DNA from: Escherichia coli
Lineage (GTDB): Bacteria; Pseudomonadota; Gammaproteobacteria; Enterobacterales; Enterobacteriaceae
Reading direction: 5' to 3' (one strand)
DNA: 64,000 nucleotides
Assembly (NCBI RefSeq): GCF_044324785.1
Contig: NZ_CP172127.1
In this document: positions 11,884 to 59,629 of the stretch, piece after piece
Numbering within the stretch: the first letter of the stretch is position 1
How the letters are laid out: each line of letters starts with the position of its first letter
Notes under the pieces: model-generated
What the model was told of the DNA's origin: nothing
Database searches by the model: none
The model's input: the letters and a program-made list of their open reading frames with translations, nothing else
Position numbers and translations under genes: made by a program

Positions 11884-11892
11884 TTCACATAA

Positions 11893-16962: not shown

Positions 16963-17117
16963 GAGTGTTTGGCGGGAAGTTATTCCCGCCTTTCTTACGG
17001 CGTTGCGCATTCTCATTGCACCCAAATTTATTTCTTTAATGAATGTTTTTTTAGATACGAATGGATTTGGCTATTAAATAAGTTTTTAATCGGGAACAGG
17101 AATGGTTCGGAGCCTTC

Positions 17118-33955: not shown

Positions 33956-34939
33956 ATGGCGTTATTAAATGTAGATAAATTATCGGTGCATTTCGGCGAC
34001 GAAAGCGCACCGTTCCGCGCCGTAGACCGCATCAGCTACAGCGTAAAACAGGGCGAAGTGGTCGGGATTGTGGGTGAGTCTGGCTCCGGTAAGTCGGTCA
34101 GTTCACTGGCGATTATGGGGCTGATTGATTATCCGGGCCGCGTAATGGCGGAAAAGCTGGTGTTTAACGGTCAGGATTTGCAGCGTATATCAGAAAAAGA
34201 GCGCCGCAACCTGGTGGGTGCCGAAGTGGCGATGATCTTCCAGGACCCGATGACCAGCCTTAACCCGTGCTACACCGTGGGTTTCCAGATTATGGAAGCG
34301 ATTAAGGTGCATCAGGGCGGCAACAAAAGTACCCGCCGTCAGCGGGCGATTGACCTGCTGAATCAGGTCGGTATTCCCGATCCGGCATCGCGTCTGGATG
34401 TTTATCCGCATCAGCTTTCCGGCGGCATGAGCCAGCGTGTAATGATCGCTATGGCAATTGCCTGTCGGCCAAAACTGCTGATTGCCGATGAACCGACCAC
34501 TGCGCTGGACGTGACCATTCAGGCGCAAATTATCGAACTGCTGCTGGAGCTACAGCAGAAAGAGAACATGGCGCTGGTGTTGATCACTCATGACCTGGCA
34601 CTGGTGGCGGAAGCGGCACATAAAATCATCGTGATGTATGCAGGCCAGGTAGTAGAAACGGGCGATGCGCACGCTATCTTCCATGCGCCGCGTCACCCGT
34701 ATACTCAGGCATTGCTGCGTGCGCTGCCGGAATTTGCTCAGGACAAAGAACGTCTGGCGTCGTTGCCAGGTGTCGTTCCCGGCAAGTACGACCGCCCGAA
34801 CGGCTGCCTGCTTAACCCGCGCTGCCCCTACGCCACTGACAAATGCCGTGCTGAAGAACCGGCGCTGAATATGCTCGCTGACGGGCGTCAGTCCAAATGC
34901 CACTACCCACTTGATGATGCCGGGAGGCCGACACTATGA
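33956..34939 (+). CDS. dppD: dipeptide ABC transporter ATP-binding protein DppD
   Basis: 327-aa ORF, Walker A GESGSGKS. Confidence 0.95.
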
Positions 34940-35940
34940 GTACGCAAGAGGCCACCTCGCAACAACCGCTGTTGCAGGCTATCGACCTGAAAAAACATTA
35001 TCCGGTGAAGAAAGGTATGTTCGCGCCGGAACGTCTGGTGAAGGCGCTGGACGGCGTTTCGTTTAACCTTGAACGCGGCAAAACGCTGGCGGTAGTAGGG
35101 GAATCTGGCTGCGGTAAATCGACCCTCGGTCGGTTGCTGACGATGATCGAAACGCCCACCGGTGGTGAACTGTATTACCAGGGGCAGGATCTGCTCAAGC
35201 ACGATCCGCAGGCGCAGAAGCTGCGTCGGCAGAAAATCCAGATTGTCTTCCAGAACCCTTACGGTTCGCTGAATCCACGTAAAAAAGTCGGGCAAATTCT
35301 TGAGGAGCCGCTGCTGATTAATACCAGCTTAAGCAAAGAACAGCGTCGGGAAAAAGCCCTGTCGATGATGGCGAAAGTCGGCCTGAAAACCGAACATTAT
35401 GACCGCTATCCGCATATGTTCTCCGGCGGACAACGTCAGCGTATCGCCATCGCCCGTGGTCTGATGCTCGACCCGGACGTGGTGATTGCCGATGAGCCGG
35501 TCTCCGCGCTGGACGTCTCAGTGCGTGCGCAGGTGCTCAACCTGATGATGGATTTGCAGCAGGAGTTGGGGCTTTCTTATGTCTTTATTTCCCACGACCT
35601 GTCGGTTGTGGAGCACATTGCTGATGAAGTGATGGTGATGTACCTGGGCCGCTGCGTGGAGAAGGGAACGAAGGACCAAATCTTCAATAACCCGCGTCAT
35701 CCGTACACTCAGGCGCTACTCTCCGCGACGCCGCGCCTGAACCCGGACGATCGCCGCGAGCGCATTAAGCTCACCGGTGAACTGCCAAGCCCGCTCAATC
35801 CACCGCCGGGCTGTGCCTTCAACGCTCGCTGTCGTCGACGCTTCGGTCCCTGCACCCAGTTGCAGCCGCAGCTAAAAGACTACGGCGGTCAACTGGTAGC
35901 CTGCTTTGCTGTTGATCAGGATGAAAATCCGCAGCGTTAA
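34936..35940 (+). CDS. dppF: dipeptide ABC transporter ATP-binding protein DppF
   Basis: 334-aa ORF, Walker [10 protein letters not shown]; 4-nt overlap with dppD. Confidence 0.95.
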
Positions 35941-35969
35941 CTCATAAAACCGGGGCCGTGCGCTCCGGT

Positions 35970-37241
35970 TTACTCAATCAGCTTCAACAGTGGCGACAAG
36001 CATAGCAAAATGCCGTAAAGCAGAATCAGCCAGGCTTTAAATCCGCGAAGTTTTTCCAGTTGTGCGACTTTATAGATCAGGAAAAATGGAATGAGGCACG
36101 ACACAATGCCATATAACGGACTTCCCAACTGAAAGAACACCAGCACCGATACACGAAACGAAACCCAAATCGTCAACGTAATGACGATAAAAGCGCAGAT
36201 CGCCAGAGTCAGCACGTGTGAGTTAATTTTCTTGGTATCAATAATTCGGCTTAACAGATTGAGAATAATGCCTTTAATGGCCTCGTGGAAACCGAGATAA
36301 ATGCCAAAGAATGCGGTCAGTACGGCAAAGATATTCAGCACCGTAGAGGTGATATGAATGATATGCCCAGGGATCACCTGCGCGGCCAGTGCCAGTGCCG
36401 AGATATTTTGTTCAAAGGCAGAAACGGCTTCTTCGTGGCTAATTGAGAAGGTAAACGAAAAGGCAAAAAACAGTATCACCGCGATGAGCGTGATATAACT
36501 AATTCGGTGGGTACGCAGCGCGAGCCGGGTTGCCAGTACTTTATCCGCTTCCCGTTTACGATAGGCAATATTCATTGGGTTAAGTACCTGAATAAATACT
36601 GCAGAAAAGAAGCAAAATGGAATGGTAAGCAGGACATCGCGGAAAAAGACGGAGGCTTGCGGGAAGGCGGTTATATTGGCGAAATTCCAGTGCGGGATCA
36701 TCGCAAAACCGAACACGACAATAATCCCTACTTTGACCACCACCATTGGCCCGGAAATCTTAAACAGTAATCGTTCACCACCAGACGCAATCGCCACCAG
36801 TACGGCGAAAATAGCGACTTTATAAAGTAGAGATTGTGAAAGATCGGCATCGGTTAAACCGAAGGTTTTCAGGTACGAGGCGCTGTCGAAAACCACGGAG
36901 AGAGAGTAGATAAAAATCCCGTGGATAATCATCAAAAAGTAGATAACCCCGAGGAAAATTCCCCAGTTCTTCCCCAGGTAATGACTGATAATATCGGTGT
37001 AGTCATTACAGGAATCGCTTTCAGAAAGGGTTTTTAAATAAATATCCTGCACTACCCAGGTGGCAGGATAAGCAATGATCGCTGCGGTAATAAATACCCA
37101 AATTCCCTTCAAGCCAATTTGTACTGGCATCAGCACGGTTCCGGCACCAATCGCCATGCCTATACATAATAAAACCCAGCCGAAGTCGTAGCGTGTAAAC
37201 GGCAATTTCTGATCGTGTTTCGGTAGTGTGTTGTGCTGCAT
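35970..37241 (-). CDS. yhjV: putative amino-acid transporter YhjV
   Basis: 423 aa from [34 protein letters not shown]...; six-frame ORF is N-terminally extended. Confidence 0.88.
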
Positions 37242-37596
37242 AAAGTCCTGTCCAGAAAGAAGTCGGCCTCGCAAAAATGAATAAACCCAGTTTCTCTTGC
37301 GCAACAGGTGGAGAAGTCGATACGCAGTATGTAAAAAATGAGGCAATAGATTCACTGGGGAGGTCGCGAGGAGGCGCAATTCTACAAAATTGCGCATTTC
37401 ACTACCAGTCTGGAGTCAGCCCGGATATGAACTGCAACTATTGCAAATAAAGAAATTAAGCTGGAAGGCATCACGCAATGAGGAAGATAGCCGGGTGCTG
37501 ACGGTAAAAAGCAATCGTAAAATCAGCGGCAAGCCGGAAAGGTTCCGGTGAGGCGCAATGTTGCGGGGGCTTAATCCCTGGTGGCATTGGTTGCTG

Positions 37597-37665
37597 GAGA
37601 GAGAAAACCCCCGCACGTTGCAGGTATGCACCTGACAACATCACGGGGGCCATTCTTGAACCTGA
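37597..37665 (-). ncRNA. rdlD: putative Rdl antisense RNA, copy 1 (approximate bounds)
   Basis: Minus-strand hairpin (ggggg...ccccc) with U-tract inside the ldr leader; placement by analogy with K-12 ldrD/rdlD. Confidence 0.35.
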
Positions 37666-37715
37666 ACAACTCAAGAATAGCCGCGAAACGTTGTCATTAC
37701 AACTCAGGCGGCTAT

Positions 37716-37823
37716 ATGACGCTCGCAGAACTGGGCATGGCCTTCTGGCATGATTTAGCGGCTCCGGTCATTGCTGGCATTCTTGCCAGCATGATCGTGA
37801 ACTGGCTGAATAAGCGGAAGTAA
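37716..37823 (+). CDS. ldrD: Ldr-family type I toxin peptide (35 aa), copy 1
   Basis: MTLAELGMAFWHDLAAPVIAGILASMIVNWLNKRK. Confidence 0.85.
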   Translation: MTLAELGMAFWHDLAAPVIAGILASMIVNWLNKRK

Positions 37824-37876
37824 CGTGTCAGACGGGCGTCAGGCTGCCGTAATGGCAAGTTGCGCCCGGATCAGAC

Positions 37877-37908
37877 CGCAGGGATAAAACTCTGCGGCCT
37901 TTTTCGTA
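37877..37908 (+). terminator. terminator of ldr copy 1
   Basis: ccgcag...ctgcgg hairpin followed by CCTTTTTCGT. Confidence 0.65.
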
Positions 37909-38079
37909 AGAAAAATGCAACGGTTGCAAGCGGATAATATTCTGCGGAATGCGCAGCACAGAGTGAAGACGTGACGGATTCCGGAACAGAAAAACAGTCG
38001 TAGAATCAGCGGCAAGCCGGAAAGGTTCCGGTGAGGCGCAATGTTGCGGGGGCTTAATCCCTGGTGGCATTGGTTGCTG

Positions 38080-38148
38080 GAGAGAGAAAACCCCCGCACG
38101 TTGCAGGTATGCACCTGACAACACCACGGGGGCCATTCTTGCATCCAA
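38080..38148 (-). ncRNA. putative Rdl antisense RNA, copy 2 (approximate bounds)
   Basis: Same structure as copy 1, shifted by 483 nt. Confidence 0.35.
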
Positions 38149-38198
38149 ACAATACAAGAATAGCCGCGAAACGTTGTCATTACAACAGAGGCGGCTAT

Positions 38199-38306
38199 AT
38201 GACGCTCGCAGAACTGGGCATGGCCTTCTGGCATGATTTAGCGGCTCCGGTCATTGCTGGCATTCTTGCCAGTCTGATCGTGAACTGGCTGAACACGCGG
38301 AAGTAA
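38199..38306 (+). CDS. Ldr-family type I toxin peptide (35 aa), copy 2 (variant C-terminus)
   Basis: MTLAELGMAFWHDLAAPVIAGILASLIVNWLNTRK; differs from copy 1 at two residues. Confidence 0.85.
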   Translation: MTLAELGMAFWHDLAAPVIAGILASLIVNWLNTRK

Positions 38307-38392
38307 CGTGTCAGACGGGCGTCAGGCTGCCGTAATGGCAATTTGCGCCCGGACCAGGCCGCAGGGGGAAAACTCTGCGGCCTTTTTCGTTC

Positions 38393-40072
38393 TTATTGCG
38401 GGTAAGGTACCCAGTCGCCGCCATTCAGGCGAACGTACGGTTTATCCTGGTATTGAATAACTACTGCATTTGAGTTCTCGGAGACCGGTGCTGTTTGTGG
38501 CAACCCACTGGTGAGTTTTTTCCAGTCAACATTGTCGTCGGAGAAAATCTTGCCATCAAGAACGCGAACCACCAGATCGGAGATAGCCAGGAAGCTGCTC
38601 GGTTGGTCGATGACAATCGGTGCCCCCTGATGTGGTGCCTTCATGCCGAAGAATTTCACCCCAACGGGGACGTCTGTGATAGACGGGCTGGGGATATCAC
38701 GTAGGCCAGATACCTGCATTCTGTCGCCCTTCAGCGCGCCACCGTGTTCCGGCACCACTACCACCATCACTTTACGACCCGATTTCTCCAGTTCAGTAAA
38801 GAAGGCGTCCAGCTCATCAAAGAATTTCTGCGCTCGCGCTTTGTAATCCGCTGTTTTGCTGACGCCCGGATAATGGTTGCCGTCATGCAGTGGAAGCGTG
38901 TTGTAGAACGTGGCACTACGGCTGTTTTTATCTTTTTCGGTAACGTCCAGCCAGCGGTTAAGCACGGCGGTATCGTCATAAACCGGCGAACCATCAAAGC
39001 CCAGCAAAATAACCGGCAGATTTGTTTGATCCATCAATTCGGTCTGCATGCCGCCATTTTCGCGAACTTCTTTCAAAAAACCGCCGAACTGGCCGTTATG
39101 TCCCATCATCAGGTGCTGGGTAAAGCCCAGTTTCGACAGGTTATCAAACAGATAGCAGTCGTTATTTGCCGGTTGATACAGATTAGTGTGCGAAGTCTGC
39201 CCGCAGCTGGCGCGCAGTAAACGGATCGCCGCCGGGCCACTGTAGGAGGTGGCGGAGTTAAAGTTCTTGAACTCAATATCGAAATGCGACCACAGCGGAT
39301 GCGACATCAACCCGGCGGCTTCAATATCCGACCAGGAAAGCGAACAAATATTAATCATCAGTAGTTCAAATGGCTGAGCATCAGCGGGCAGCGAAGACGG
39401 GAAGGTCGATTTACGTTTCGCCTCTGCGTTATAGAAATTATTCAGCCAGGCGTTAAGGTTCGCCGTTGTTGGCGGTGCAGTTTGTGCGGGCATATCACCC
39501 ACTACCGGTGCGCCACCCGTCGCGGCAACGGTTGCCGCTGCGTTACCACCCGTCGTTGTTACAGTGGTCGTCGGTTGACCGGCAGGCCACAAGGAGAAAC
39601 TTGGTCCCGCCAGGGTAAGTACGTTCAGCCATAGCAGAATGGCAACCACAAAAACGGTAATGCGAATCCATTGTGACAGGAATAACCAGGCCACTAATAA
39701 AACAAAAATGGCCCCAATCATCTGCCAGTTAATAAAGCGTGTGACAAGGTCGATTAAATAATCGGTACTGAACCCCGCCACCTGCGAACCCTGGCTCATT
39801 ATGCTTTCCGGGCCAGGCAACCAGGTGTCATGCCAGAACAAAGCAAAGCCGATCGGCAGGGCAATCCAGTGGCGTAAGCGATGCAGGCTGTAGCGCGGAA
39901 TGGGCATCAGCAGAAACGCGGCAAACACCAGATTGAGGAGCGGATGGAAGTTAAGATATCCCGCCCACAACAGGCCGAACTTAACCAGAAAATAGAAGTT
40001 CCAGCCGGAAAGGCCGCGCCAGTATTGCCAGAGGGAAGAAGGCATGGCGGTATTTTGCGTAAATTGAGTCAT
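38393..40072 (-). CDS. bcsG: cellulose biosynthesis protein BcsG (phosphoethanolamine transferase)
   Basis: 559-aa [39 protein letters not shown]... Confidence 0.93.
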
Positions 40073-40260
40073 TTTTTGGTTGCCTTGGCTTTTTCCGTGC
40101 GGCGTAACGTCCCGGCCGGTTTAACATAACGAGGTTTAGCAAAGAACAAACGTAAGGTGTCGCGAATGCGTCGCAAAGAGTGCCGCGCCAGATAGCCCAG
40201 CGGGAAAAATATCAGTGCGCAAACGACAATAATTTCAATGATATCGCTGATGGTCATCAT
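40069..40260 (-). CDS. bcsF: cellulose biosynthesis protein BcsF
   Basis: 63-aa ORF with one TM helix; 4-nt overlaps with bcsE and bcsG. Confidence 0.88.
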
Positions 40261-41828
40261 GATGAGCGCTCCACAGCATCATCTAACAGTCGCATTGGTT
40301 CTGGTATTCGTCGCCAGTGGCGACCATCGTGCTCGGCATTAATGACCGGTTTAGAACTTTGCGTTAAAGGCAGCGGCATGCCCCATTGTTCTGGGGCAAG
40401 CAGGCGCATCTGCACCAGCTCGGCACTGATTTGATCATCTTCAAACCAGACCATACGGTTTGAGAAAATGTCGCCAGTCGGCAATGGGAAAATATGATTC
40501 AACGCGGTATCCAGATCGTTAATCCGACAGAATGAGAGAAACAGCACCAGCCGATTACCGCCAATGGTCATGATATCGCCGGTACGGTTAGGGCGACACA
40601 GCGTCAGGGCTTGTTCAACGCGGATACCCGGTACCGGACGTAGGGCAACCAGAACGCCTTTACCGTGGGCAGGTAATAGAGGGTTATTCATCATGTTGTT
40701 GACGGCATTACAGAACACATCCCACTTCTGGAAACCACGCAGTTTGAGCGGCTGGGTCATTGACAGCAAGGTAGTGATATCTTCCGGCACATAGCGACTA
40801 AATTTCTGCCCTTGCACGCTTTCGATCATCGTCAGACAACGGGAGAGTGGCGCATTCCACGGGATAACCATATTTGCACCGCAGGCCAATAACAAACGTT
40901 CATCGGTGGCGCGCAGGCTAGCGGTATTTTCCCGTACGAGGATTTTCATCGCACTACCGCGCTGGCGACGCAGGGTATGAATGCTGCGGGCCAGTGGCTC
41001 GATTTGCGCATTTTGCTGTAAAGAAAAGACCACCGTCGCCGCCTGAGCGGTACGGGCTTCATTGAACAGGACTTCGTTATTGTTGAACAGTTGCCAGTGT
41101 TCCGATAGCGGCGGCGCACCTTCCAGTACAGCAACATTACTCAGAATGCGTTTTTCGTCGCTGCGTGGTTGGATCTCCGCCTCTTCGCTTTGAACTAAGG
41201 TCCAGATACCCTTTTGTTGCTGAACGCTAAGCTGCTGACGGGCGCTGACCCCTTTTTCGTTGCACCAGAAGGCAATATCCAGCAAATGTTGGTCGCCCTG
41301 AAAACGCAAACTGGCAAGACCAAAAAGTGAACGGTATTCCTCAAGCAACAATGAAAATTGTTTATCGTTATTATTTCCGGGATTAATTACCAAAAGCGAA
41401 CAATGGTTTAACCTGCTCCATTTATTCATTTTATCCAACCATGAGCGAAGCCGCTCGGCAGGAATGTTTTGCCATGCGTTATTTGCGCAAACAAGAATAA
41501 AAAGGTAATTATGGGGATCAATAGAACACTGCAAATCACGGGCCAAATAGTATAGACCTTTTTCATGATTTAGCATTGAAAATAATTTTATTTTTTCCGG
41601 CCCTTGAGAATCATCTAATTGAAAGATTTTCGCCGGATCGCTGTCCATGCTAATGACCGCGACGTGTGCGGTTTCAGCCTGGGATGCAATTGTTTGATTC
41701 GCCAGACTGATAGCATCTTCATGGCGATCGACGTTAAACCACCAGACGCCGCCTGCTGGCATATGTCGCAGCTCATCCCATAATGATGAGATACCGATAG
41801 AGAATACAGGGTCCACAATGTCCCTCAT
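40257..41828 (-). CDS. bcsE: cellulose biosynthesis c-di-GMP-binding protein BcsE
   Basis: 523-aa [23 protein letters not shown]... Confidence 0.93.
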
Positions 41829-42099
41829 GTCATCATTTTGTCTGATTATCAGTTTACTAGCGAAAGCTAAGAAATAAACCTACCATTGAAATTAAAACTT
41901 ATCAGATTTAGCATGTGAATCAATTTAGCAGGTCACAAGACGTGTGATTTTAGTCTTTTCGTTTTTAACTTTTTTTGTTGCGTAACGGAAAGTCAAAAAG
42001 TGAGCAAATTCCCGTCTCGCCGTAAACAATAAACCGGCGAAATGCTCACGGTTAGAATTGTCTCATGAACGGTACGGTTATTTCATAGGGATCAAGCAA

Positions 42100-42288
42100 A
42101 TGAATAACAATGAACCAGATACTCTGCCTGATCCCGCGATAGGCTATATCTTCCAGAATGATATTTTGGCGTTAAAGCAGGCATTTTCACTGCCTGATAT
42201 TGATTATGCCGATATTTCCCAACGCGAACAGTTGGCCGCGGCATTAAAACGCTGGCCGTTGCTGGCAGAGTTTGCGCAACAAAAGTAG
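42100..42288 (+). CDS. bcsR: cellulose biosynthesis protein BcsR
   Basis: 62 aa MNNNEPDTLPDPAIGYIFQNDILALKQAF...; divergent from bcsE. Confidence 0.85.
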   Translation: MNNNEPDTLPDPAIGYIFQNDILALKQAFSLPDIDYADISQREQLAAALKRWPLLAEFAQQK

Positions 42289-42299
42289 GGGATTGGTGA

Positions 42300-43052
42300 A
42301 TGGCCGTACTGGGATTGCAGGGGGTGCGGGGAGGCGTGGGGACAACAACCATCACCGCCGCATTAGCCTGGTCATTACAAATGTTGGGAGAAAATGTCCT
42401 GGTGGTCGATGCCTGCCCGGACAACTTGTTGCGCCTGTCATTTAACGTTGATTTTACCCACCGTCAGGGCTGGGCCAGAGCTATGCTGGATGGCCAGGAC
42501 TGGCGTGACGCCGGGTTGCGCTACACCTCGCAGCTCGATTTGCTGCCTTTTGGTCAGTTATCCATTGAAGAACAAGAAAATCCACAGCACTGGCAAACCC
42601 GGTTGAGCGATATTTGCTCCGGCTTACAGCAACTAAAATCCAGCGGGCGTTACCAGTGGATTTTAATCGACTTACCGCGTGATGCCTCGCAGATAACCCA
42701 CCAGCTGCTGAGTTTGTGCGATCACTCGCTGTCAATCGTCAATGTGGATGCCAACTGCCATATCCGACTGCATCAGCAAGCGCTGCCGGATGGCGCACAT
42801 ATTTTGATTAATGACTTCCGTATCGGCAGTCAGGTTCAGGACGATATTTACCAGCTTTGGTTGCAAAGCCAGCGCCGATTACTGCCGATGCTCATTCATC
42901 GTGATGAAGCGATGGCTGAATGCCTGGCGGCTAAGCAACCAGTCGGTGAATACCGCAGTGATGCGCTGGCGGCTGAAGAGATACTGACGCTGGCGAACTG
43001 GTGCCTGTTGAACTATTCCGGGCTGAAAACGCCAGTCGGGAGTGCATCATGA
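42300..43052 (+). CDS. bcsQ: cellulose biosynthesis protein BcsQ (ParA/MinD-like ATPase), apparently full length
   Basis: 250-aa uninterrupted ORF MAVLGLQGVRGGVGTTTITAALAW...; codon 6 is TTG (Leu). Confidence 0.9.
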   Translation: MAVLGLQGVRGGVGTTTITAALAWSLQMLGENVLVVDACPDNLLRLSFNVDFTHRQGWARAMLDGQDWRDAGLRYTSQLDLLPFGQLSIEEQENPQHWQTRLSDICSGLQQLKSSGRYQWILIDLPRDASQITHQLLSLCDHSLSIVNVDANCHIRLHQQALPDGAHILINDFRIGSQVQDDIYQLWLQSQRRLLPMLIHRDEAMAECLAAKQPVGEYRSDALAAEEILTLANWCLLNYSGLKTPVGSAS

Positions 43053-45667
43053 GTATCCTGACCCGGTGGTTGCTTATCCCGCCGGTCAACGCGCGGCTTA
43101 TCGGGCGTTATCGCGATTATCGTCGTCACGGCGCGTCGGCTTTCAGCGCGACGCTAGGCTGTTTTTGGTTGATCCTGGCCTGGATTTTTATTCCGCTGGA
43201 GCACCCGCGCTGGCAGCGTATTCGCGCAGAACATAAAAACCTGTATCCGCATATCAACGCCTCGCGTCCGCGTCCGCTGGACCCGGTCCGTTATCTCATT
43301 CAAACATGCTGGTTACTGATCGGTACATCGCGCAAAGAAACGCCGAAACCGCGCAGGCGGACATTTTCAGGTCTGCAGAATATTCGTGGACGTTACCATC
43401 AATGGATGAACGAGCTGCCTGAGCGCGTTAGCCATAAAACACAGCATCTCGATGAGAAAAAAGAACTCGGCCATTTGAGCGCAGGGGCGCGGCGGTTGAT
43501 CCTCGGTATCATCGTCACCTTCTCGCTGATTCTGGCGTTAATCTGCGTTACCCAGCCGTTTAACCCGCTGGCGCAGTTTATCTTCCTGATGCTGCTGTGG
43601 GGTGTAGCGCTGATCGTACGGCGGATGCCGGGGCGCTTCTCGGCGCTAATGTTGATTGTGCTGTCGCTGACCGTTTCTTGCCGTTATATCTGGTGGCGCT
43701 ACACCTCTACGCTGAACTGGGACGATCCTGTCAGCCTGGTGTGCGGGCTTATTCTGCTGTTCGCCGAAACGTACGCGTGGATTGTGCTGGTGCTCGGTTA
43801 CTTCCAGGTAGTATGGCCGCTGAATCGTCAGCCGGTGCCATTGCCGAAAGATATGTCGCTGTGGCCGTCGGTGGATATCTTTGTCCCGACTTACAACGAA
43901 GATCTCAACGTGGTGAAAAATACCATTTACGCCTCGCTGGGTATCGACTGGCCGAAAGACAAACTGAACATCTGGATCCTCGATGACGGCGGCAGGGAAG
44001 AGTTTCGCCAGTTTGCGCAAAACGTGGGGGTGAAATATATCGCCCGCACCACTCATGAACATGCGAAAGCGGGCAACATCAACAATGCGCTGAAATATGC
44101 CAAAGGCGAGTTCGTGTCGATTTTCGACTGCGACCACGTACCAACGCGATCGTTCCTGCAAATGACCATGGGCTGGTTCCTGAAAGAGAAACAGCTGGCG
44201 ATGATGCAGACTCCACACCACTTCTTCTCACCGGACCCGTTTGAACGCAACCTGGGGCGTTTTCGTAAAACACCGAACGAAGGCACGCTGTTCTATGGTC
44301 TGGTGCAGGATGGCAACGATATGTGGGACGCCACTTTCTTCTGCGGTTCCTGTGCGGTGATTCGCCGTAAGCCGCTGGATGAAATTGGCGGCATTGCTGT
44401 CGAAACTGTGACTGAAGATGCGCATACTTCTCTGCGTTTGCACCGTCGTGGCTATACCTCCGCGTATATGCGTATTCCGCAGGCGGCGGGGCTGGCGACC
44501 GAAAGTCTGTCGGCGCATATCGGTCAGCGTATTCGCTGGGCGCGCGGGATGGTGCAAATCTTCCGTCTCGATAACCCGCTCACCGGTAAAGGGCTGAAGT
44601 TTGCTCAGCGGCTGTGCTACGTCAACGCCATGTTCCACTTCTTGTCGGGCATTCCACGGCTGATCTTCCTGACTGCGCCGCTGGCGTTCCTGCTGCTTCA
44701 TGCCTACATCATCTATGCGCCAGCGTTGATGATCGCCCTGTTCGTGCTGCCGCATATGATCCATGCCAGCCTGACCAACTCCAAGATCCAGGGCAAATAT
44801 CGCCACTCTTTCTGGAGTGAAATCTACGAAACGGTGCTGGCGTGGTATATCGCACCACCGACGCTGGTGGCGCTGATTAACCCTCACAAAGGCAAATTTA
44901 ACGTCACCGCCAAAGGTGGACTGGTGGAAGAAGAGTACGTCGACTGGGTGATCTCGCGGCCCTACATCTTCCTTGTTCTGCTCAACCTGGTGGGCGTTGC
45001 GGTAGGCATCTGGCGCTACTTCTATGGCCCGCCAACCGAGATGCTCACTGTGGTCGTCAGTATGGTGTGGGTATTCTACAACCTGATTGTTCTTGGCGGC
45101 GCAGTTGCGGTATCGGTAGAAAGCAAACAGGTGCGCCGATCGCACCGCGTGGAGATGACGATGCCCGCGGCAATTGCCCGCGAAGATGGTCACCTCTTCT
45201 CGTGTACCGTTCAGGATTTCTCCGACGGTGGTTTGGGGATCAAGATCAACGGTCAGGCGCAGATTCTGGAAGGGCAGAAAGTGAATCTGTTGCTTAAACG
45301 CGGTCAGCAGGAATACGTCTTCCCGACCCAGGTGGCGCGCGTGATGGGTAATGAAGTTGGGTTGAAATTAATGCCGCTCACCACCCAGCAACATATCGAT
45401 TTTGTGCAGTGTACGTTTGCCCGTGCGGATACATGGGCGCTCTGGCAGGACAGCTATCCGGAAGATAAGCCGCTGGAAAGTCTGCTGGATATTCTGAAGC
45501 TCGGCTTCCGTGGCTACCGCCATCTGGCGGAGTTTGCGCCTTCTTCGGTGAAGGGCATATTCCGTGTGCTGACTTCTCTGGTTTCCTGGGTTGTATCGTT
45601 TATTCCGCGCCGCCCGGAGCGGAGCGAAACGGCACAACCATCGGATCAGGCTTTGGCTCAACAATGA
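43049..45667 (+). CDS. bcsA: cellulose synthase catalytic subunit (UDP-forming) BcsA
   Basis: 872 aa from MSILTRWLLIPPVNARL...; GT2 motifs and C-terminal PilZ; 4-nt overlap with bcsQ. Confidence 0.95.
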   Translation: MSILTRWLLIPPVNARLIGRYRDYRRHGASAFSATLGCFWLILAWIFIPLEHPRWQRIRAEHKNLYPHINASRPRPLDPVRYLIQTCWLLIGTSRKETPKPRRRTFSGLQNIRGRYHQWMNELPERVSHKTQHLDEKKELGHLSAGARRLILGIIVTFSLILALICVTQPFNPLAQFIFLMLLWGVALIVRRMPGRFSALMLIVLSLTVSCRYIWWRYTSTLNWDDPVSLVCGLILLFAETYAWIVLVLGYFQVVWPLNRQPVPLPKDMSLWPSVDIFVPTYNEDLNVVKNTIYASLGIDWPKDKLNIWILDDGGREEFRQFAQNVGVKYIARTTHEHAKAGNINNALKYAKGEFVSIFDCDHVPTRSFLQMTMGWFLKEKQLAMMQTPHHFFSPDPFERNLGRFRKTPNEGTLFYGLVQDGNDMWDATFFCGSCAVIRRKPLDEIGGIAVETVTEDAHTSLRLHRRGYTSAYMRIPQAAGLATESLSAHIGQRIRWARGMVQIFRLDNPLTGKGLKFAQRLCYVNAMFHFLSGIPRLIFLTAPLAFLLLHAYIIYAPALMIALFVLPHMIHASLTNSKIQGKYRHSFWSEIYETVLAWYIAPPTLVALINPHKGKFNVTAKGGLVEEEYVDWVISRPYIFLVLLNLVGVAVGIWRYFYGPPTEMLTVVVSMVWVFYNLIVLGGAVAVSVESKQVRRSHRVEMTMPAAIAREDGHLFSCTVQDFSDGGLGIKINGQAQILEGQKVNLLLKRGQQEYVFPTQVARVMGNEVGLKLMPLTTQQHIDFVQCTFARADTWALWQDSYPEDKPLESLLDILKLGFRGYRHLAEFAPSSVKGIFRVLTSLVSWVVSFIPRRPERSETAQPSDQALAQQ

Positions 45668-45677: not shown

Positions 45678-48017
45678 ATGAAAAGAAAACTATTCTGGAT
45701 TTGTGCAGTGGCTATGGGGATGAGTGCGTTCCCCTCTTTCATGACGCAGGCGACGCCAGCAACGCAACCACTGATCAATGCTGAGCCAGCTGTAGCCGCC
45801 CAGACGGAACAAAATCCGCAGGTGGGGCAAGTGATGCCGGGCGTGCAGGGCGCTGATGCGCCAGTCGTGGCGCAGAACGGTCCTTCGCGTGATGTGAAGC
45901 TGACCTTTGCGCAAATTGCGCCGCCGCCGGGCAGCATGGTGCTACGTGGCATTAACCCGAACGGCAGCATTGAGTTTGGTATGCGCAGCGATGAAGTGGT
46001 GACGAAGGCGATGCTCAACCTCGAATACACGCCATCGCCATCGTTACTGCCTGTCCAGTCGCAGTTAAAGGTTTATCTCAATGATGAACTGATGGGCGTG
46101 CTGCCAGTGACCAAAGAACAGTTGGGTAAAAAAACACTGGCGCAAATGCCCATTAACCCACTGTTTATTACCGACTTCAACCGTGTGCGGCTGGAGTTTG
46201 TCGGCCATTATCAGGACGTGTGCGAAAACCCGGCCAGCACCACGCTTTGGCTGGATGTTGGGCGGAGCAGTGGACTGGATCTGACCTATCAGACCCTGAA
46301 TGTGAAGAATGACCTGTCACACTTCCCGGTGCCATTCTTTGACCCGCGTGATAACCGCACCAACACCTTGCCGATGGTCTTTGCGGGTGCGCCGGATGTT
46401 GGGCTGCAACAAGCATCTGCCATTGTCGCCTCGTGGTTTGGTTCGCGTTCTGGCTGGCGTGGGCAGAACTTCCCGGTGCTCTATAACCAACTGCCGGATC
46501 GCAATGCCATTGTCTTTGCAACCAACGACAAACGGCCGGACTTCCTGCGCGATCATCCGGCGGTAAAAGCCCCGGTGATTGAGATGATCAACCATCCGCA
46601 GAATCCTTACGTCAAACTGCTGGTGGTGTTTGGTCGTGACGACAAAGACCTGTTGCAGGCAGCGAAAGGTATCGCTCAGGGTAACATTCTGTTCCGTGGT
46701 GAAAGCGTGGTAGTGAATGAAGTGAAACCGCTGCTACCGCGTAAGCCGTACGATGCGCCGAACTGGGTGCGTACCGATCGTCCGGTCACCTTTGGTGAAC
46801 TGAAAACCTATGAAGAACAGTTACAATCCAGCGGTCTTGAGCCAGCAGCGATTAACGTTTCGCTAAACCTGCCGCCGGATCTCTACCTGATGCGCAGTAC
46901 CGGCATTGATATGGATATCAACTATCGCTACACCATGCCGCCGGTGAAAGACAGTTCGCGGATGGATATCAGCCTGAATAACCAGTTCCTGCAATCCTTC
47001 AACCTGAGCAGTAAACAGGAGGCGAACCGCCTGCTGCTGCGTATTCCGGTATTACAAGGTTTGCTGGATGGCAAAACGGATGTCTCTATTCCGGCGCTGA
47101 AACTGGGCGCGACCAACCAGTTGCGGTTCGACTTTGAGTATATGAACCCGATGCCGGGCGGTTCGGTGGATAACTGTATTACCTTCCAGCCGGTGCAGAA
47201 TCATGTGGTGATTGGTGACGACTCCACCATCGACTTCTCGAAGTATTACCACTTCATCCCGATGCCGGATCTACGCGCCTTTGCTAACGCGGGCTTCCCG
47301 TTCAGCCGGATGGCGGATCTGTCACAAACCATCACCGTGATGCCGAAAGCGCCTCACGAAGCACAGATGGAAACCTTGCTGAATACCGTTGGCTTTATCG
47401 GTGCGCAGACGGGCTTCCCGGCGATTAACCTGACGGTGACCGATGATGGCAGCACCATTCAGGGCAAAGATGCCGACATCATGATCGTCGGTGGTATCCC
47501 GGACAAACTGAAAGACGATAAGCAGATCGACCTGTTGGTGCAGGCGACCGAAAGCTGGGTGAAAACGCCGATGCGCCAGACCCTGTTCCCCGGCATTGTA
47601 CCGGATGAGAGCGATCGCGCGGCAGAAACTCAATCAACGCTGACCTCTTCCGGTGCGATGGCAGCGGTGATTGGCTTCCAGTCGCCGTATAACGACCAGC
47701 GTAGCGTGATTGCGCTGCTGGCAGATAGCCCGCGCGGTTATGAAATGCTTAACGATGCGGTGAACGATAGCGGCAAACGCGCCACCATGTTCGGTTCGGT
47801 CGCGGTGATCCGCGAGTCCGGTATCAATAGCCTGCGTGTTGGCGACGTCTATTACGTTGGCCATCTGCCGTGGTTCGAACGCTTATGGTATGCCCTGGCA
47901 AACCATCCGATTCTGCTGGCGGTGCTGGCGGCAATCAGCGTCGTGCTGCTGGCATGGGTACTGTGGCGTCTGCTGCGTATTATCAGCCGTCGTCGTCTTA
48001 ACCCGGATAACGAGTAA
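45678..48017 (+). CDS. bcsB: cellulose synthase regulatory subunit BcsB
   Basis: 779 aa from MKRKLFWICAVAMGMSAFPSFMTQA... Confidence 0.95.
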   Translation: MKRKLFWICAVAMGMSAFPSFMTQATPATQPLINAEPAVAAQTEQNPQVGQVMPGVQGADAPVVAQNGPSRDVKLTFAQIAPPPGSMVLRGINPNGSIEFGMRSDEVVTKAMLNLEYTPSPSLLPVQSQLKVYLNDELMGVLPVTKEQLGKKTLAQMPINPLFITDFNRVRLEFVGHYQDVCENPASTTLWLDVGRSSGLDLTYQTLNVKNDLSHFPVPFFDPRDNRTNTLPMVFAGAPDVGLQQASAIVASWFGSRSGWRGQNFPVLYNQLPDRNAIVFATNDKRPDFLRDHPAVKAPVIEMINHPQNPYVKLLVVFGRDDKDLLQAAKGIAQGNILFRGESVVVNEVKPLLPRKPYDAPNWVRTDRPVTFGELKTYEEQLQSSGLEPAAINVSLNLPPDLYLMRSTGIDMDINYRYTMPPVKDSSRMDISLNNQFLQSFNLSSKQEANRLLLRIPVLQGLLDGKTDVSIPALKLGATNQLRFDFEYMNPMPGGSVDNCITFQPVQNHVVIGDDSTIDFSKYYHFIPMPDLRAFANAGFPFSRMADLSQTITVMPKAPHEAQMETLLNTVGFIGAQTGFPAINLTVTDDGSTIQGKDADIMIVGGIPDKLKDDKQIDLLVQATESWVKTPMRQTLFPGIVPDESDRAAETQSTLTSSGAMAAVIGFQSPYNDQRSVIALLADSPRGYEMLNDAVNDSGKRATMFGSVAVIRESGINSLRVGDVYYVGHLPWFERLWYALANHPILLAVLAAISVVLLAWVLWRLLRIISRRRLNPDNE

Positions 48018-48023: not shown

Positions 48024-49130
48024 ATGAATGTGTTGCGTAGTGGACTCGTGACGATGCTGCTGCTGGCTGCCTTTAGTGTTCAGGCAGCCTGCAACTGGCC
48101 TGCCTGGGAGCAGTTCAAAAAGGATTACATCAGTCAGGAAGGGCGCGTCATTGACCCAAGTGACGCGCGTAAAATCACCACCTCTGAAGGGCAAAGTTAC
48201 GGCATGTTCTTTGCCCTGGCGGCTAACGACCGTGCAGCTTTCGATAATATTCTCGACTGGACGCAGAACAATCTCGCTCAGGGTTCTTTAAAAGAACGTT
48301 TGCCCGCCTGGCTGTGGGGCAAGAAAGAGAACAGTAAGTGGGAAGTGCTGGACAGCAATTCGGCCTCCGATGGTGATGTCTGGATGGCCTGGTCGTTGCT
48401 GGAGGCGGGGCGTTTGTGGAAAGAGCAGCGTTATACCGACATCGGCAGCGCGTTGTTAAAACGTATTGCGCGGGAGGAAGTGGTGACGGTGCCTGGGCTG
48501 GGTTCCATGTTGTTGCCGGGCAAAGTGGGATTTGCAGAGGATAACAGCTGGCGTTTTAACCCCAGCTACCTGCCGCCGACGCTGGCGCAGTATTTCACCC
48601 GCTTTGGCGCGCCGTGGACTACGCTGCGCGAAACCAATCAACGTTTATTGCTGGAAACCGCCCCGAAAGGCTTTTCGCCAGACTGGGTGCGCTATGAGAA
48701 AGACAAAGGCTGGCAGCTAAAAGCCGAAAAAACATTGATCAGCAGCTACGACGCGATCCGCGTTTACATGTGGGTAGGCATGATGCCTGACAGCGATCCG
48801 CAAAAAGCGCGGATGCTCAACCGGTTTAAACCGATGGCGACATTCACCGAGAAAAACGGCTATCCGCCAGAAAAAGTGGATGTGGCTACGGGGAAAGCGC
48901 AGGGTAAAGGACCGGTCGGTTTTTCTGCCGCCATGCTGCCCTTTTTACAAAACCGCGATGCGCAGGCCGTTCAGCGCCAGCGCGTGGCCGATAACTTTCC
49001 CGGCAGCGATGCCTATTACAACTATGTGCTGACCCTGTTTGGACAAGGCTGGGATCAACACCGTTTCCGCTTCTCGACAAAAGGTGAGTTATTACCTGAC
49101 TGGGGCCAGGAATGCGCAAATTCACACTAA
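48024..49130 (+). CDS. bcsZ: endo-1,4-beta-glucanase BcsZ (GH8)
   Basis: 368 aa from [22 protein letters not shown]... Confidence 0.95.
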
Positions 49131-52100
49131 ACATATTCACGCTTTCCCTCGGGCTGGCCGTCATGCCGATGGTCGAGGCAGCACCAACCGCTCAGCAACA
49201 GTTGCTGGAGCAAGTTCGGTTAGGCGAAGCGACCCATCGTGAAGACCTGGTGCAACAGTCGTTGTATCGGCTGGAACTTATTGATCCGAATAACCCGGAC
49301 GTCGTTGCCGCCCGTTTCCGTTCTCTGTTACGTCAGGGCGATATTGATGGCGCGCAAAAACAGCTCGATCGGCTGTCGCAGTTAGCGCCGAGTTCAAATG
49401 CGTATAAATCGTCGCGGACTACGATGCTGCTTTCCACGCCGGATGGTCGTCAGGCACTGCAACAGGCAAGATTGCAGGCGACGACTGGTCATGCAGAAGA
49501 AGCTGTGGCGAGTTACAACAAACTGTTCAACGGTGCGCCGCCGGAAGGTGACATTGCTGTCGAGTACTGGAGTACGGTGGCGAAAATTCCGGCTCGCCGT
49601 GGCGAAGCGATTAATCAGCTAAAACGCATTAATGCGGATACGCCGGGCAATACGGGCCTGCAAAACAATCTGGCGCTATTGCTGTTTAGTAGCGATCGCC
49701 GTGACGAAGGTTTTGCCGTCCTGGAACAGATGGCGAAATCGAACGCCGGGCGCGAAGGGGCCTCTAAAATCTGGTACGGGCAGATTAAAGACATGCCCGT
49801 CAGCGATGCCAGTGTGTCGGCGCTGAAAAAATATCTCTCGATATTTAGCGATGGCGATAGCGTGGCGGCTGCACAATCGCAACTGGCAGAACAGCAAAAA
49901 CAGCTGGCCGACCCTGCTTTCCGCGCTCGTGCGCAAGGTTTAGCGGCGGTGGACTCTGGTATGGCGGGTAAAGCCATTCCCGAACTACAACAGGCGGTGC
50001 GGGCGAACCCGAAAGACAGTGAGGCTCTGGGGGCGCTGGGCCAGGCGTATTCTCAGAAAGGCGATCGCGCCAATGCGGTGGCGAATCTGGAAAAAGCCCT
50101 CGCCCTGGATCCGCACAGCAGCAACAACGACAAATGGAACAGTCTCCTGAAAGTAAACCGCTACTGGCTGGCGATCCAGCAGGGCGATGCTGCGCTGAAA
50201 GCCAATAATCCTGACCGGGCAGAACGCCTGTTCCAGCAGGCGCGTAATGTCGATAACACCGACAGCTATGCAGTGCTGGGGCTGGGCGATGTGGCGATGG
50301 CGCGCAAAGATTATCCCGCCGCTGAACGCTATTACCAGCAGACGCTGCGTATGGACAGTAGCAACACTAACGCCGTGCGCGGGCTGGCGAAGATTTACCG
50401 CCAGCAGTCGCCAGAAAAAGCCGAAGCGTTTATCGCCTCGCTCTCTACCAGTCAGCGGCGCAGCATTGATGATATCGCACGCAGCCTGCAAAACGACCGT
50501 CTGGCACAGCAGGCAGAGGCACTGGAAAAGCAGGGCAAATGGGTGCAGGCGGCAGCACTTCAGCGGCAACGACTGGCGCTGGACCCCGGCAGTGTATGGA
50601 TTACTTACCGACTTTCACAGGATCTCTGGCAGGCCGGACAACGCAGCCAGGCTGATACATTAATGCGCAATCTGGCACAGCAGAAGCCGAACGACCCGGA
50701 GCAGGTTTACGCTTACGGGCTGTATCTCTCTGGCCATGACCAGGACAGAGCGGCGCTGGCGCATATCAACAGCCTGCCGCGCGCGCAGTGGAACAGCAAT
50801 ATTCAGGAACTGGTTAATCGCCTGCAAAGCGATCAGGTGCTGGAAACCGCTAATCGCCTGCGAGAAAGCGGCAAAGAGGCAGAAGCGGAAGCGATGCTGC
50901 GCCAGCAACCGCCTTCCTCGCGTATTGACCTCACGCTGGCTGACTGGGCGCAGCAGCGACGTGATTACACCGCCGCCCGCGCTGCTTATCAGAACGTTTT
51001 GACGCGGGAGCCAACTAACGCCGATGCCATTCTTGGTCTGACGGAAGTGGATATTGCTGCCGGTGACAAAGCGGCGGCACGTAGCCAGCTGGCGAAGCTG
51101 CCTGCCACCAATAACGCCTCGCTGAACACTCAGCGGCGCGTGGCGCTGGCACAGGCGCAGCTTGGCGATACCGCAGCGGCGCAGCAGACATTTAATCAGT
51201 TGATCCCGCAGGCAAAATCTCAGCCACCGTCGATGGAAAGCGCGATGGTGCTGCGCGACGGTGCGAAGTTTGAAGCACAGGCGGGCGATCCAAAGCAGGC
51301 GCTGGAAACCTACAAAGACGCCATGGTCGCATCCGGTGTGACCACGACGCGTCCGCAGGATAACGACACCTTTACCCGGCTGACCCGTAACGACGAGAAA
51401 GATGACTGGCTGAAACGCGGCGTGCGCAGCGATGCAGCGGACCTCTATCGCCAGCAGGATCTTAACGTCACCCTCGAGCACGATTACTGGGGTTCGAGCG
51501 GCACCGGTGGTTACTCCGATCTGAAAGCGCACACCACTATGTTGCAGGTGGACGCGCCGTATTCTGACGGGCGGATGTTCTTTCGCAGTGATTTCGTCAA
51601 TATGAACGTCGGCAGTTTCTCCACTAATGCCGATGGTAAATGGGATGACAACTGGGGCACCTGTACATTACAGGATTGTAGCGGCAACCGCAGCCAGTCG
51701 GATTCCGGTGCCAGCGTGGCGGTCGGTTGGCGAAATGACGTCTGGAGCTGGGATATCGGCACCACGCCGATGGGCTTCAACGTGGTGGATGTGGTCGGCG
51801 GCATCAGTTACAGCGATGATATCGGGCCGCTGGGTTACACCGTTAACGCCCACCGTCGGCCCATCTCCAGTTCTTTGCTGGCCTTTGGCGGGCAAAAAGA
51901 CTCCCCGAGCAATACCGGGAAAAAATGGGGCGGCGTGCGTGCCGACGGCGTGGGGCTAAGCCTGAGCTACGATAAAGGTGAAGCAAACGGCGTCTGGGCA
52001 TCGCTTAGCGGTGATCAGTTAACCGGTAAAAATGTCGAAGATAACTGGCGCGTGCGCTGGATGACGGGCTATTACTATAAGGTCATCAACCAGAACAATC

Positions 52101-52585
52101 GCCGCGTCACCATCGGCCTGAACAACATGATCTGGCATTACGACAAAGACCTGAGTGGTTACTCACTCGGTCAGGGCGGTTACTACAGCCCGCAGGAATA
52201 CCTGTCGTTTGCCATACCGGTGATGTGGCGGGAGCGCACGGAAAACTGGTCGTGGGAGCTGGGGGCGTCTGGCTCGTGGTCGCATTCACGCACCAAAACC
52301 ATGCCGCGTTATCCGCTGATGAATCTGATCCCGACCGACTGGCAGGAAGAAGCTGCGCGGCAATCGAACGATGGCGGCAGCAGTCAGGGCTTTGGCTACA
52401 CGGCGCGGGCATTACTTGAGCGACGTGTTACTTCCAACTGGTTTGTCGGCACGGCAATTGATATCCAGCAGGCGAAAGATTACGCACCCAGCCATTTCCT
52501 GCTCTACGTACGTTATTCCGCCGCCGGATGGCAGGGTGACATGGATTTACCGCCGCAGCCGCTGATACCTTACGCCGACTGGTAA
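49112..52585 (+). CDS. bcsC: cellulose synthase outer-membrane subunit BcsC (TPR repeats plus beta-barrel)
   Basis: 1157-aa ORF; 19-nt overlap with bcsZ. Confidence 0.95.
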
Positions 52586-52666: not shown

Positions 52667-54655
52667 TTGCGCGTAAGTCGCTCGTTAACAATCAAGCAGA
52701 TGGCAATGGTGGCAGCCGTTGTCCTGGTGTTCGTTTTTATTTTTTGCACCGTTTTGCTGTTCCATCTGGTCCAGCAGAATCGCTATAACACGGCTACGCA
52801 ACTGGAAAGCATTGCTCGCTCTGTCCGCGAACCCTTATCTTCAGCTATTTTGAAAGGCGATATTCCCGAAGCGGAAGCTATTCTTGCCAGCATTAAACCG
52901 GCAGGCGTGGTCAGCCGTGCCGATGTGGTGCTGCCCAACCAGTTCCAGGCGCTGCGTAAAAGTTTTATTCCAGAGCGTCCGGTGCCGGTAATGGTTACTC
53001 GCCTGTTTGAGCTACCGGTGCAAATCTCGCTGGGCGTTTACTCGCTCGAACGTCCGGCAAATCCGCAGCCAATTGCCTATCTGGTGCTACAGGCGGATTC
53101 CTTCCGTATGTATAAGTTCGTGATGAGCACCCTCTCAACGTTAGTGACCATTTACTTACTTTTGTCGCTAATATTGACTGTGGCGATTAGCTGGTGCATT
53201 AACCGACTGATTTTGCATCCGTTACGCAATATTGCTCGTGAACTTAACGCCATCCCAGCCCAGGAGCTTGTTGGTCACCAACTGGCATTACCACGTCTGC
53301 ATCAGGACGATGAAATCGGTATGTTGGTGCGTAGTTACAACCTCAACCAGCAATTGCTGCAGCGCCATTATGAAGAACAGAACGAAAACGCGATGCGCTT
53401 CCCGGTGTCGGATTTGCCGAACAAAGCCTTGCTGATGGAGATGCTGGAGCAGGTGGTGGCGCGTAAACAAACTACCGCGCTGATGATCATCACCTGTGAA
53501 ACCCTGCGTGATACTGCGGGTGTGCTGAAAGAGGCGCAAAGAGAAATTCTGCTGCTGACGCTGGTGGAAAAACTCAAATCGGTACTGTCGCCACGTATGA
53601 TCCTCGCGCAGATTAGTGGTTATGACTTTGCTGTCATTGCCAATGGTGTACAGGAACCGTGGCACGCAATCACTTTAGGTCAGCAAGTGCTCACTATCAT
53701 GAGCGAGCGCCTGCCGATTGAACGTATTCAACTCCGTCCGCACTGTAGCATTGGCGTGGCGATGTTCTACGGCGATCTCACCGCCGAACAGCTTTACAGT
53801 CGCGCTATTTCTGCGGCATTTACCGCTCGCCATAAAGGCAAGAATCAGATTCAGTTCTTTGATCCGCAGCAGATGGAAGCCGCCCAACAGCGGTTGACGG
53901 AAGAGAGCGATATCCTTAATGCACTGGAAAATCATCAGTTTGCGATTTGGTTACAGCCACAGGTCGAGATGACCAGCGGTAAACTGGTCAGTGCGGAAGT
54001 GTTACTGCGTATCCAGCAACCGGATGGCAGTTGGGATCTGCCGGATGGCTTAATCGATCGCATTGAGTGCTGTGGGCTGATGGTTACCGTCGGTCACTGG
54101 GTGCTGGAAGAGTCCTGTCGACTGCTGGCTGCCTGGCAAGAGCGCGGCATTATGCTGCCCTTGTCGGTAAACCTCTCAGCGCTGCAACTGATGCACCCGA
54201 ATATGGTAGCGGATATGCTGGAACTGTTAACCCGCTATCGCATTCAGCCGGGAACACTGATTCTGGAAGTGACAGAAAGCCGACGTATTGACGACCCTCA
54301 TGCTGCGGTGGCAATCCTCCGTCCGTTGCGTAATGCCGGAGTTCGGGTGGCGCTGGATGATTTCGGCATGGGCTATGCGGGGCTGCGTCAGCTGCAGCAT
54401 ATGAAATCGTTGCCAATCGACGTACTGAAAATCGACAAAATGTTTGTTGAAGGCTTGCCGGAAGATAGCAGCATGATTGCTGCAATTATCATGTTGGCGC
54501 AAAGCCTGAACTTACAAATGATTGCCGAAGGCGTGGAGACTGAAGCACAACGCGACTGGCTGGCAAAAGCGGGCGTTGGTATTGCCCAGGGCTTCCTTTT
54601 TGCTCGCCCACTCCCTATTGAAATCTTCGAAGAGAGTTACCTGGAAGAAAAGTAG
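52667..54655 (+). CDS. pdeK: c-di-GMP phosphodiesterase PdeK (degenerate GGDEF plus EAL)
   Basis: 662-aa ORF from TTG ([21 protein letters not shown]...) preceded by a GGGGGGAG Shine-Dalgarno; start not certain. Confidence 0.88.
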
Positions 54656-57840: not shown

Positions 57841-58043
57841 TAAATAACCCGGTAGCGTTTCTTCTGCGCTGCCGGGATTAACGGTAATAAATTAGTTACC
57901 GTGATATAACCGCAGATATTTTTCCGGGCACGGCGGTAGCGCGCAGATAACCATTCATTATTAAAATAAACTTACCGTAGAGTGGGTTTAATTATTTATT
58001 AGCTGAATAAATTATACCGGTGCCTCCTGGAAGGAGTGAGTTT

Positions 58044-58469
58044 ATGCTTGTGTTAAAATCACAATCGATTGGATTCAGGATTTCCACAACTTATTTATCT
58101 TTAACATATACAGAGTCTGATGGCGTCAACATTAAAGTAGATGCTCTGGAGTTAATATCAAAAGAGAAAGATTATGTTCAAATTGAACTGGTCTTCACTA
58201 CAGTTGCTGAAGTTAAGTGTGCTACCGTCAATTTTTATGAAGCCAACTATAACAATATTGTTATTAAGAAGGTTGATGGTGAAAATCTGGACTCCGGTAT
58301 ATATCAAGTAATGAATTCTGTACCGCTTGAAGAAAAAGAGAAATTATATGACCCTAAAAAACGGTTGAAGTTAAAACATTATATTATAGCAGGTTATGAT
58401 AGTTATGTTGAGATTTTAGCTACTGGTTTTAGCTGTATACGATGCCAGGCAATAGATGGTGTTAAATAA
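58044..58469 (+). CDS. hypothetical protein (island ORF A, 141 aa)
   Basis: ATG at 58044 with GGAAGGAG 6 nt upstream; six-frame ORF starts 24 nt earlier at GTG inside the RBS; no recognised family. Confidence 0.6.
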   Translation: MLVLKSQSIGFRISTTYLSLTYTESDGVNIKVDALELISKEKDYVQIELVFTTVAEVKCATVNFYEANYNNIVIKKVDGENLDSGIYQVMNSVPLEEKEKLYDPKKRLKLKHYIIAGYDSYVEILATGFSCIRCQAIDGVK

Positions 58470-58723
58470 TGGCCTATCATATAGAAATATTGAAAATTGA
58501 AGAAACTGATAAAGTAGTAAAATATGAATTTGGACCTACATCTTCTGACTATTGTAGATCTGATTACGGCGAGTTCGTGATAGATAAAAGAACGGGTGAG
58601 ATGACATTAGTCAGAATGGTTAAAAACGATTCGGCTAATAAATTTTATTTGCGAGCGAGTTTTAAGATTCTGACCTGTTGGCGAAAGGGCTATTTGCCAA
58701 AAAATGGGGAATGGGCTTCTTAA
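58469..58723 (+). CDS. hypothetical protein (island ORF B, 84 aa)
   Basis: ATG overlaps the ORF A stop (TAATG), indicating translational coupling; no recognised family. Confidence 0.55.
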   Translation: MAYHIEILKIEETDKVVKYEFGPTSSDYCRSDYGEFVIDKRTGEMTLVRMVKNDSANKFYLRASFKILTCWRKGYLPKNGEWAS

Positions 58724-58772
58724 TAAGTAACTTTGCAGAATAAGTGAATTTTCCCATTTTTGGGGGCAGTCG

Positions 58773-59039
58773 TTGATTCTTACACAGTTTATGTTATGGG
58801 TGCAGAAAAATACTGGGCATAATATTAGATGCAATACCAATACATTATCAACTAGCATAGTTATTGATTTTGATAATGATATCTATATTGCCAGGTTTAC
58901 AGTTTGGGATGATTTAAGTTGTATGTCAGAAGTTATATGCGTTGAAACGGGGGATTATAAATTAAATCAGCGAAATGAATTCCATACTTATGATTCGCTA
59001 AGGAAGATTTTTGATAATTTCATGGGAATTATACAATAA
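58773..59039 (+). CDS. hypothetical protein (island ORF C, 82-88 aa)
   Basis: ORF opens at TTG 58773; first ATG at 58791; no clear RBS; may be degraded. Confidence 0.4.
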   Translation: MILTQFMLWVQKNTGHNIRCNTNTLSTSIVIDFDNDIYIARFTVWDDLSCMSEVICVETGDYKLNQRNEFHTYDSLRKIFDNFMGIIQ

Positions 59040-59064
59040 ATTGCGCTAATAAAATAAAAACATT

Positions 59065-59556: not shown

Positions 59557-59629
59557 TGAGTTATTAGTCTGGTTTATCTAAAAATGTAGGTGGTTTTTTT
59601 GCGACATCAACGGATTTAAAGGAGTATAA

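Follow-up and report, generated by a model that had tools for sequence, protein, structure and literature searches.

An uninterrupted bcsQ reading frame in the cellulose locus of an Escherichia coli chromosome

bcsQ in K-12 and in cellulose-producing strains

In the E. coli K-12 strain W3110, codon 6 of bcsQ is TAG, and changing this codon to TTG gave the cellulose-proficient strain AR3110, as described in the available text of several reports (PMC7397504, PMC5014196, PMC4287979, PMC5944007). Because the repair of codon 6 alone made W3110 cellulose-proficient, the other eight Bcs proteins are functional in their K-12 form. Polarity on bcsA is given in the available text of PMC5944007 as just one of two possible explanations for the effect of the K-12 lesion. 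The wild-type gene is known from strain 1094 and from AR3110 (PDB 6YAR/6YBU; PMC5944007, PMC7397504). It encodes a protein of 250 aa with TTG/Leu6 and a Walker-A-like N-terminus, and it occupies the slot between bcsR and bcsA, with an ATGA overlap with the latter.

We compared these systems with the bcsQ gene found in a 64,000-nucleotide stretch of the E. coli contig NZ_CP172127.1 (assembly GCF_044324785.1), referred to here as the window. The protein length, codon 6, the N-terminal motif, the slot and the overlap are all the same as in strain 1094 and AR3110, and the product differs from this wild-type system by A114S and A145S. The original prediction had described an uninterrupted 250-codon frame with TTG at codon 6, and both the description and the coordinates proved exact. 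From position 42300 (+) the window reads ATG GCC GTA CTG GGA TTG CAG GGG GTG CGG, and the frame runs from the ATG start to a TGA stop. Its translation, MAVLGLQGVRGG...GSAS*, contains zero internal stops, and the full translated stretch, MAVLGLQGVRGGVGTTT...GSAS*, is unbroken. The two features are:

42300..43052, + strand: bcsQ, intact, 250 codons; predicted SIMIBI/MinD-ParA-like ATPase of the cellulose secretion system
42315..42317, + strand: codon 6 of bcsQ, TTG (Leu) here and TAG in K-12, from the MG1655 alignment

The K-12 reference for all comparisons was the region 3680000-3706000 of MG1655 (NC_000913), in which bcsQ (b3534, 3695233-3695985) is annotated as a pseudogene. The premature stop at codon 6, which the original prediction had stated for K-12, is present as TAG in the MG1655 alignment and is also documented in the literature (PMC7397504, PMC5014196). 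An alignment of the early codons had been proposed as a check; over the first 80 bases of bcsQ, TTG versus TAG is the sole change, and the 61 bases around codon 6 are otherwise identical between MG1655 and the window. Over the whole protein, the differences from K-12 to the window are *6L, A114S and A145S. The gene, its length and its genomic context are thus the same as for b3534, with three codon differences including the stop. TAG versus TTG is the only disruption across the nine bcs genes in this comparison, the other eight Bcs proteins being 98.4-99.7% identical between the window and K-12. The mark of the K-12-type pseudogene, TAG at codon 6, is therefore absent from the window. The K-12 gene represents the derived, cellulose-negative state, whereas the window carries the sense codon. 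In the laboratory lineage of K-12, the exception here, a T-to-A change has turned codon 6 into TAG, with loss of cellulose.

The bcsQ TGA overlaps the bcsA ATG by 4 bases (ATGA, 43049-43052). Because of this overlap, polarity on bcsA in K-12, through lost translational coupling or through Rho-dependent polarity, is plausible from the gene arrangement.

The BcsQ protein and the nine-gene bcs locus

The window BcsQ matches the NCBIfam equivalog NF007460 over residues 1-250 of 250 (540.6 bits, cut-off 399), as well as TIGR03371 (296.3 bits, cut-off 157.85). The crystallised E. coli BcsQ (PDB 6ybu/6yar) was retrieved with E = 2e-167 and differs at 4 of 250 residues. The deviant Walker A motif, or P-loop, GVRGGVGTT corresponds to residues 8-16. 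In a set of 114 BcsQ homologues from Escherichia, Salmonella and Citrobacter, the residues L6, G8, R10, G11, G12 and G14 are invariant (114/114), and 113 of the 114 retain T15 and T16; the window protein has all of them. As this BcsQ is roughly 98% identical to the crystallised one, we infer that it would bind ATP, form the BcsR-BcsQ complex and take part in cellulose secretion. The substitutions A114S and A145S are conservative changes and, among the genomes compared, are common to strain N3 only.

The gene lies between bcsR (42100-42288) and bcsA (43049-45667), all on the + strand. The remaining features of the locus, with the roles predicted for their products in this strain, are:

38393..40072, - strand: bcsG, 559 aa, cellulose phosphoethanolamine transferase (named so in MG1655); TIGR03368, 816.4 bits
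40069..40260, - strand: bcsF, 63 aa; TIGR03493, 116.8 bits
40257..41828, - strand: bcsE, 523 aa, c-di-GMP-binding, heads the divergent bcsEFG operon; NF011619 equivalog, 1189 bits, residues 1-523 of 523
41829..42099, no strand: divergent bcsE-bcsR intergenic region, 271 bp, one A shorter than in K-12
42100..42288, + strand: bcsR (yhjR), 62 aa, opens bcsRQABZC; V23L is the only difference from K-12; NF040717, 75.8 bits, cut-off 46
43049..45667, + strand: bcsA, 872 aa, catalytic cellulose synthase with a PilZ domain; NF008558 equivalog, 1792.8 bits
45678..48017, + strand: bcsB, 779 aa, periplasmic co-synthase subunit, near-identical to PDB 6yg8/7l2z
48024..49130, + strand: bcsZ, 368 aa, periplasmic endoglucanase, from the K-12 comparison and NCBIfam
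49112..52585, + strand: bcsC, 1157 aa, TPR and outer-membrane channel protein, from the K-12 comparison and NCBIfam
52667..54655, + strand: pdeK (hmsP), 662 aa, c-di-GMP phosphodiesterase adjoining the operon, intact

None of the nine bcs genes (bcsRQABZC and the divergent bcsEFG) differs in length from its K-12 counterpart or is broken by an internal stop, and the nine stand in the canonical divergent order in a region collinear with K-12. All nine proteins exceed their NCBIfam family cut-offs, and the original prediction was right that the other bcs genes are also full length. Eight of them cover essentially the whole model, and in the bcsR product residues 20-61 match the whole of a 42-position model. 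Across eight other E. coli genomes, the orthologues share 98-100% identity with the nine proteins, BcsA and BcsZ being identical to the proteins of ST648 and N3. BcsA differs from that of K-12 by three N-terminal substitutions (M41L, A93T and A105T); its catalytic motifs (DCD360, FFCGS430, TED455 and QRIRW493) are present, as are the PilZ c-di-GMP motifs (RRSHR696 and DFSDGG723). The phosphodiesterase PdeK is functionally linked to the cellulose synthase (PMC7397504), and pdeH is also intact in the window, at 61347-62114.

A one-base length difference from most E. coli in the bcsR-bcsQ region was considered as a frameshift and rejected, as it is an A-run polymorphism upstream of the bcsR ATG. 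The run, at 42097-42099 directly upstream of the ATG, reads AAA here versus AAAA in K-12, which brings an AGGGA Shine-Dalgarno-like sequence one base closer to the bcsR start. The 61-mer carrying the short run occurs in 635 complete genomes, including ST648, and on this distribution we regard the short form as a natural polymorphism.

Selection on the locus was estimated from Nei-Gojobori counts against four genomes. Over the nine bcs genes, pN/pS was 0.027 versus N3, 0.051 versus K-12, 0.062 versus JJ1886 and 0.072 versus ST648; the comparison with N3 gave 78 synonymous and 7 non-synonymous differences. These low ratios indicate that the bcs locus is under strong purifying selection.

In the best reading, the window holds an ordinary wild-type locus, with bcsRQABZC, the divergent bcsEFG and pdeK alongside, and with bcsQ in its ancestral form with Leu6. 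BcsQ, as a MinD/ParA-like ATPase, would together with BcsR assemble with the BcsA-BcsB synthase, and BcsEFG would add the phosphoethanolamine modification to cellulose. We give a probability of about 93% to the reading that this is an ordinary wild-type E. coli cellulose locus in which bcsQ is ancestral and uninterrupted. The state of the sequence, the integrity of the genes, their family membership, the frequency of the allele in the population and purifying selection follow directly from the comparisons, and how the proteins work in this strain and which phenotype results are inferred from them.

Missense alleles and the cellulose phenotype

The original prediction went on from the intact operon to a strain that is cellulose-proficient and capable of making phosphoethanolamine-cellulose. 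The genotypic part of this statement stands, all bcs genes being intact, but the phenotypic part goes too far, because the regulators lie elsewhere, strains with comparable loci are calcofluor-negative, and the essential BcsB carries private missense changes. An intact bcs locus is necessary but not sufficient for cellulose. For synthesis, the cellulose synthase has to be activated by c-di-GMP, which DgcC produces under the RpoS/CsgD cascade (PMC7397504, PMC5014196), and csgD, dgcC, rpoS and mlrA are all outside the window, whose K-12 equivalent extends from malS to yhjG. When six phylogroup A strains were grown on calcofluor plates, 1094 alone was positive (PMC5944007). BL21 and H10407 gave no calcofluor signal although they have no bcs nonsense mutation, and the authors put forward missense changes in BcsB, BcsC and BcsQ as a tentative cause (PMC5944007).

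A similar situation could be envisaged here, in which the reading frames are intact but BcsB N560H/P636L, BcsC N427K/K696Q or BcsQ A114S/A145S reduce assembly or secretion and leave the strain cellulose-poor. The precedent of BL21 and H10407 speaks for it, and the available text of PMC10881479 describes repeated, adaptive loss of cellulose in E. coli. Several of the alleles are also rare. Neither BcsB N560H (47355-47357) nor P636L (47583-47585) has an exact 61-mer in 5426 complete genomes, the best match having one mismatch in each case. At BcsB position 560, 89 of 91 close homologues have Asn, and at BcsQ position 145, Ser in the window, each of the 114 homologues has either A or V. BcsC N427K and K696Q are absent from the eight comparison genomes. 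On the other side, BcsB position 636 (P/T/A/D) and BcsQ position 114 (A/E/K) vary among close homologues, Asn-to-His and Ala-to-Ser are mild changes, and the catalytic and nucleotide-binding motifs are all untouched. The ratio of synonymous to non-synonymous differences against N3 points to continued purifying selection and not to decay.

BcsB P636L was considered separately as a damaging change; since position 636 varies among close homologues, it is probably neutral. N560H, at a conserved residue, may have an effect. Since the changes are chemically mild and pN/pS is low, a functional defect from the private alleles is unlikely, and we regard an attenuated locus as improbable. The more specific version, a silent lesion in which BcsB N560H, possibly with P636L or with BcsC N427K/K696Q, attenuates cellulose secretion, is slightly less probable still. 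If true, it would represent a missense route to the convergent attenuation of cellulose described for invasive E. coli clones.

We see no block to the synthesis of phosphoethanolamine-cellulose within the window, and output would be set by the regulators elsewhere and by the few missense alleles.

Frequency of the intact allele and origin of the strain

Population frequencies were obtained as exact 61-mer counts in 5426 complete E. coli genomes, and the integrity of the whole locus was taken from the available text of a published Enterobase survey (PMC10881479). The 61-mer with TTG at codon 6 was found in 3551 of the 5426 genomes, and the K-12 form with TAG in 349. Among the 60 listed of these 349, most have laboratory or K-12 names (MG1655, DH5alpha, C600, J53, NCM3722, HMS174 and others), and all 60 have K-12-sized chromosomes of 4.46-4.79 Mb. 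By these counts the intact bcsQ is what E. coli commonly carries, as the ancestral wild-type state, and K-12 departs from it. As the TTG form is in the majority and the TAG form in the minority, the intact gene marks nothing distinctive in this strain.

Integrity of the whole bcs locus is not universal, with more than 80% of strains affected in 14 of the types concerned, according to the available text of PMC10881479. Natural loss alleles include, for bcsQ, a nonsense codon 66 in O157:H7 and Q178* in ST95; for bcsA, a frameshift at residue 186 in ST95; and for bcsE, a nonsense mutation in ATCC 8739 and a frameshift in O104:H4 (PMC10881479, PMC5944007, PMC4287979). By sequence comparison, none of these O157:H7, ST95, ATCC 8739 and O104:H4 lesions is found in the nine-gene locus of the window. 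In the O157:H7 strain 146N4, bcsQ (11252-12004 of the fetched segment) is annotated as a pseudogene with a stop at codon 66, where the window has Gln. This codon-66 nonsense mutation arose independently of the K-12 lesion.

The closest complete genome is that of the human rectal isolate N3 (NZ_CP031609), with 99.5% identity over 20 kb, all others being at or below 98.6%. When 32000-56000 of the window was compared with N3, SNPs clustered in dppBC (32-34 kb), bcsA (43.4-44.9 kb), bcsB (46-48 kb) and bcsC (50-52 kb), and a 9.4-kb stretch (34000-43374) was identical apart from one SNP. This pattern has the appearance of the usual recombination mosaic, running through the bcs operon. On its sequence, a laboratory K-12 strain is clearly excluded as the source.

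A sequencing error at codon 6 had been named as a way in which the intact frame could turn out to be wrong. It is unlikely, because 3551 complete genomes share the identical TTG 61-mer and all 114 BcsQ homologues have Leu6. An erroneous TTG in what is really a K-12-like bcsQ mutant can be dismissed as highly improbable, since TTG is the majority allele, the region is about 2% divergent from K-12 with a clinical isolate as its closest genome, and the window has islands absent from K-12 and no IS150 at hokA, where K-12 carries one.

Several neighbouring features were also recorded. An AT-rich island of 2.35 kb (57841-60193), not in K-12, lies between yhjJ and kdgK and holds five small ORFs on the same strand (149, 84, 88, 163 and 194 aa). 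Only the 88-aa ORF (58773-59039) has a Pfam match, to the TriTu immunity-protein family (E = 7.7e-20); the island looks like a putative orphan immunity-gene cluster. Its full version was found in N3 only, and about 65% of it in some 170 genomes, including E. coli 042. Between yhjV and bcsG, we found two tandem copies of an ldr/rdl type I toxin-antitoxin system (37506-38390), with Rfam rdlD matches at 37602-37667 and 38085-38150 on the - strand. The copy number beside the bcs locus varies, with two in the window, one in K-12 (ldrD/rdlD) and three in JJ1886 and MP1. An intact hok/sok locus was located at 16661-17036 (Rfam sok at 16661-16812, hok-like ORF at 16750-16962); at this site hokA/sokA of K-12 is broken by IS150, and the insertion sequence is absent from the window. 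Finally, about 450 bp between hok and cspA (17037-17484) are missing in K-12. A 123-aa ORF in this area (17118-17489, +) has a sub-threshold Pfam match to YidD (26.1 bits, cut-off 27) and a Cys-rich C-terminal tail.

The intact bcsQ is thus confirmed but ordinary, and represents a state already known. The codon-6 lesion of K-12, its repair and the wild-type state have all been published, and surveys have already shown that bcs integrity varies by lineage. The observation has little value beyond annotation, and it marks the source as no K-12 derivative. With a cellulose locus free of the known nonsense and frameshift lesions, the strain could serve for work on the biofilm matrix without prior repair.
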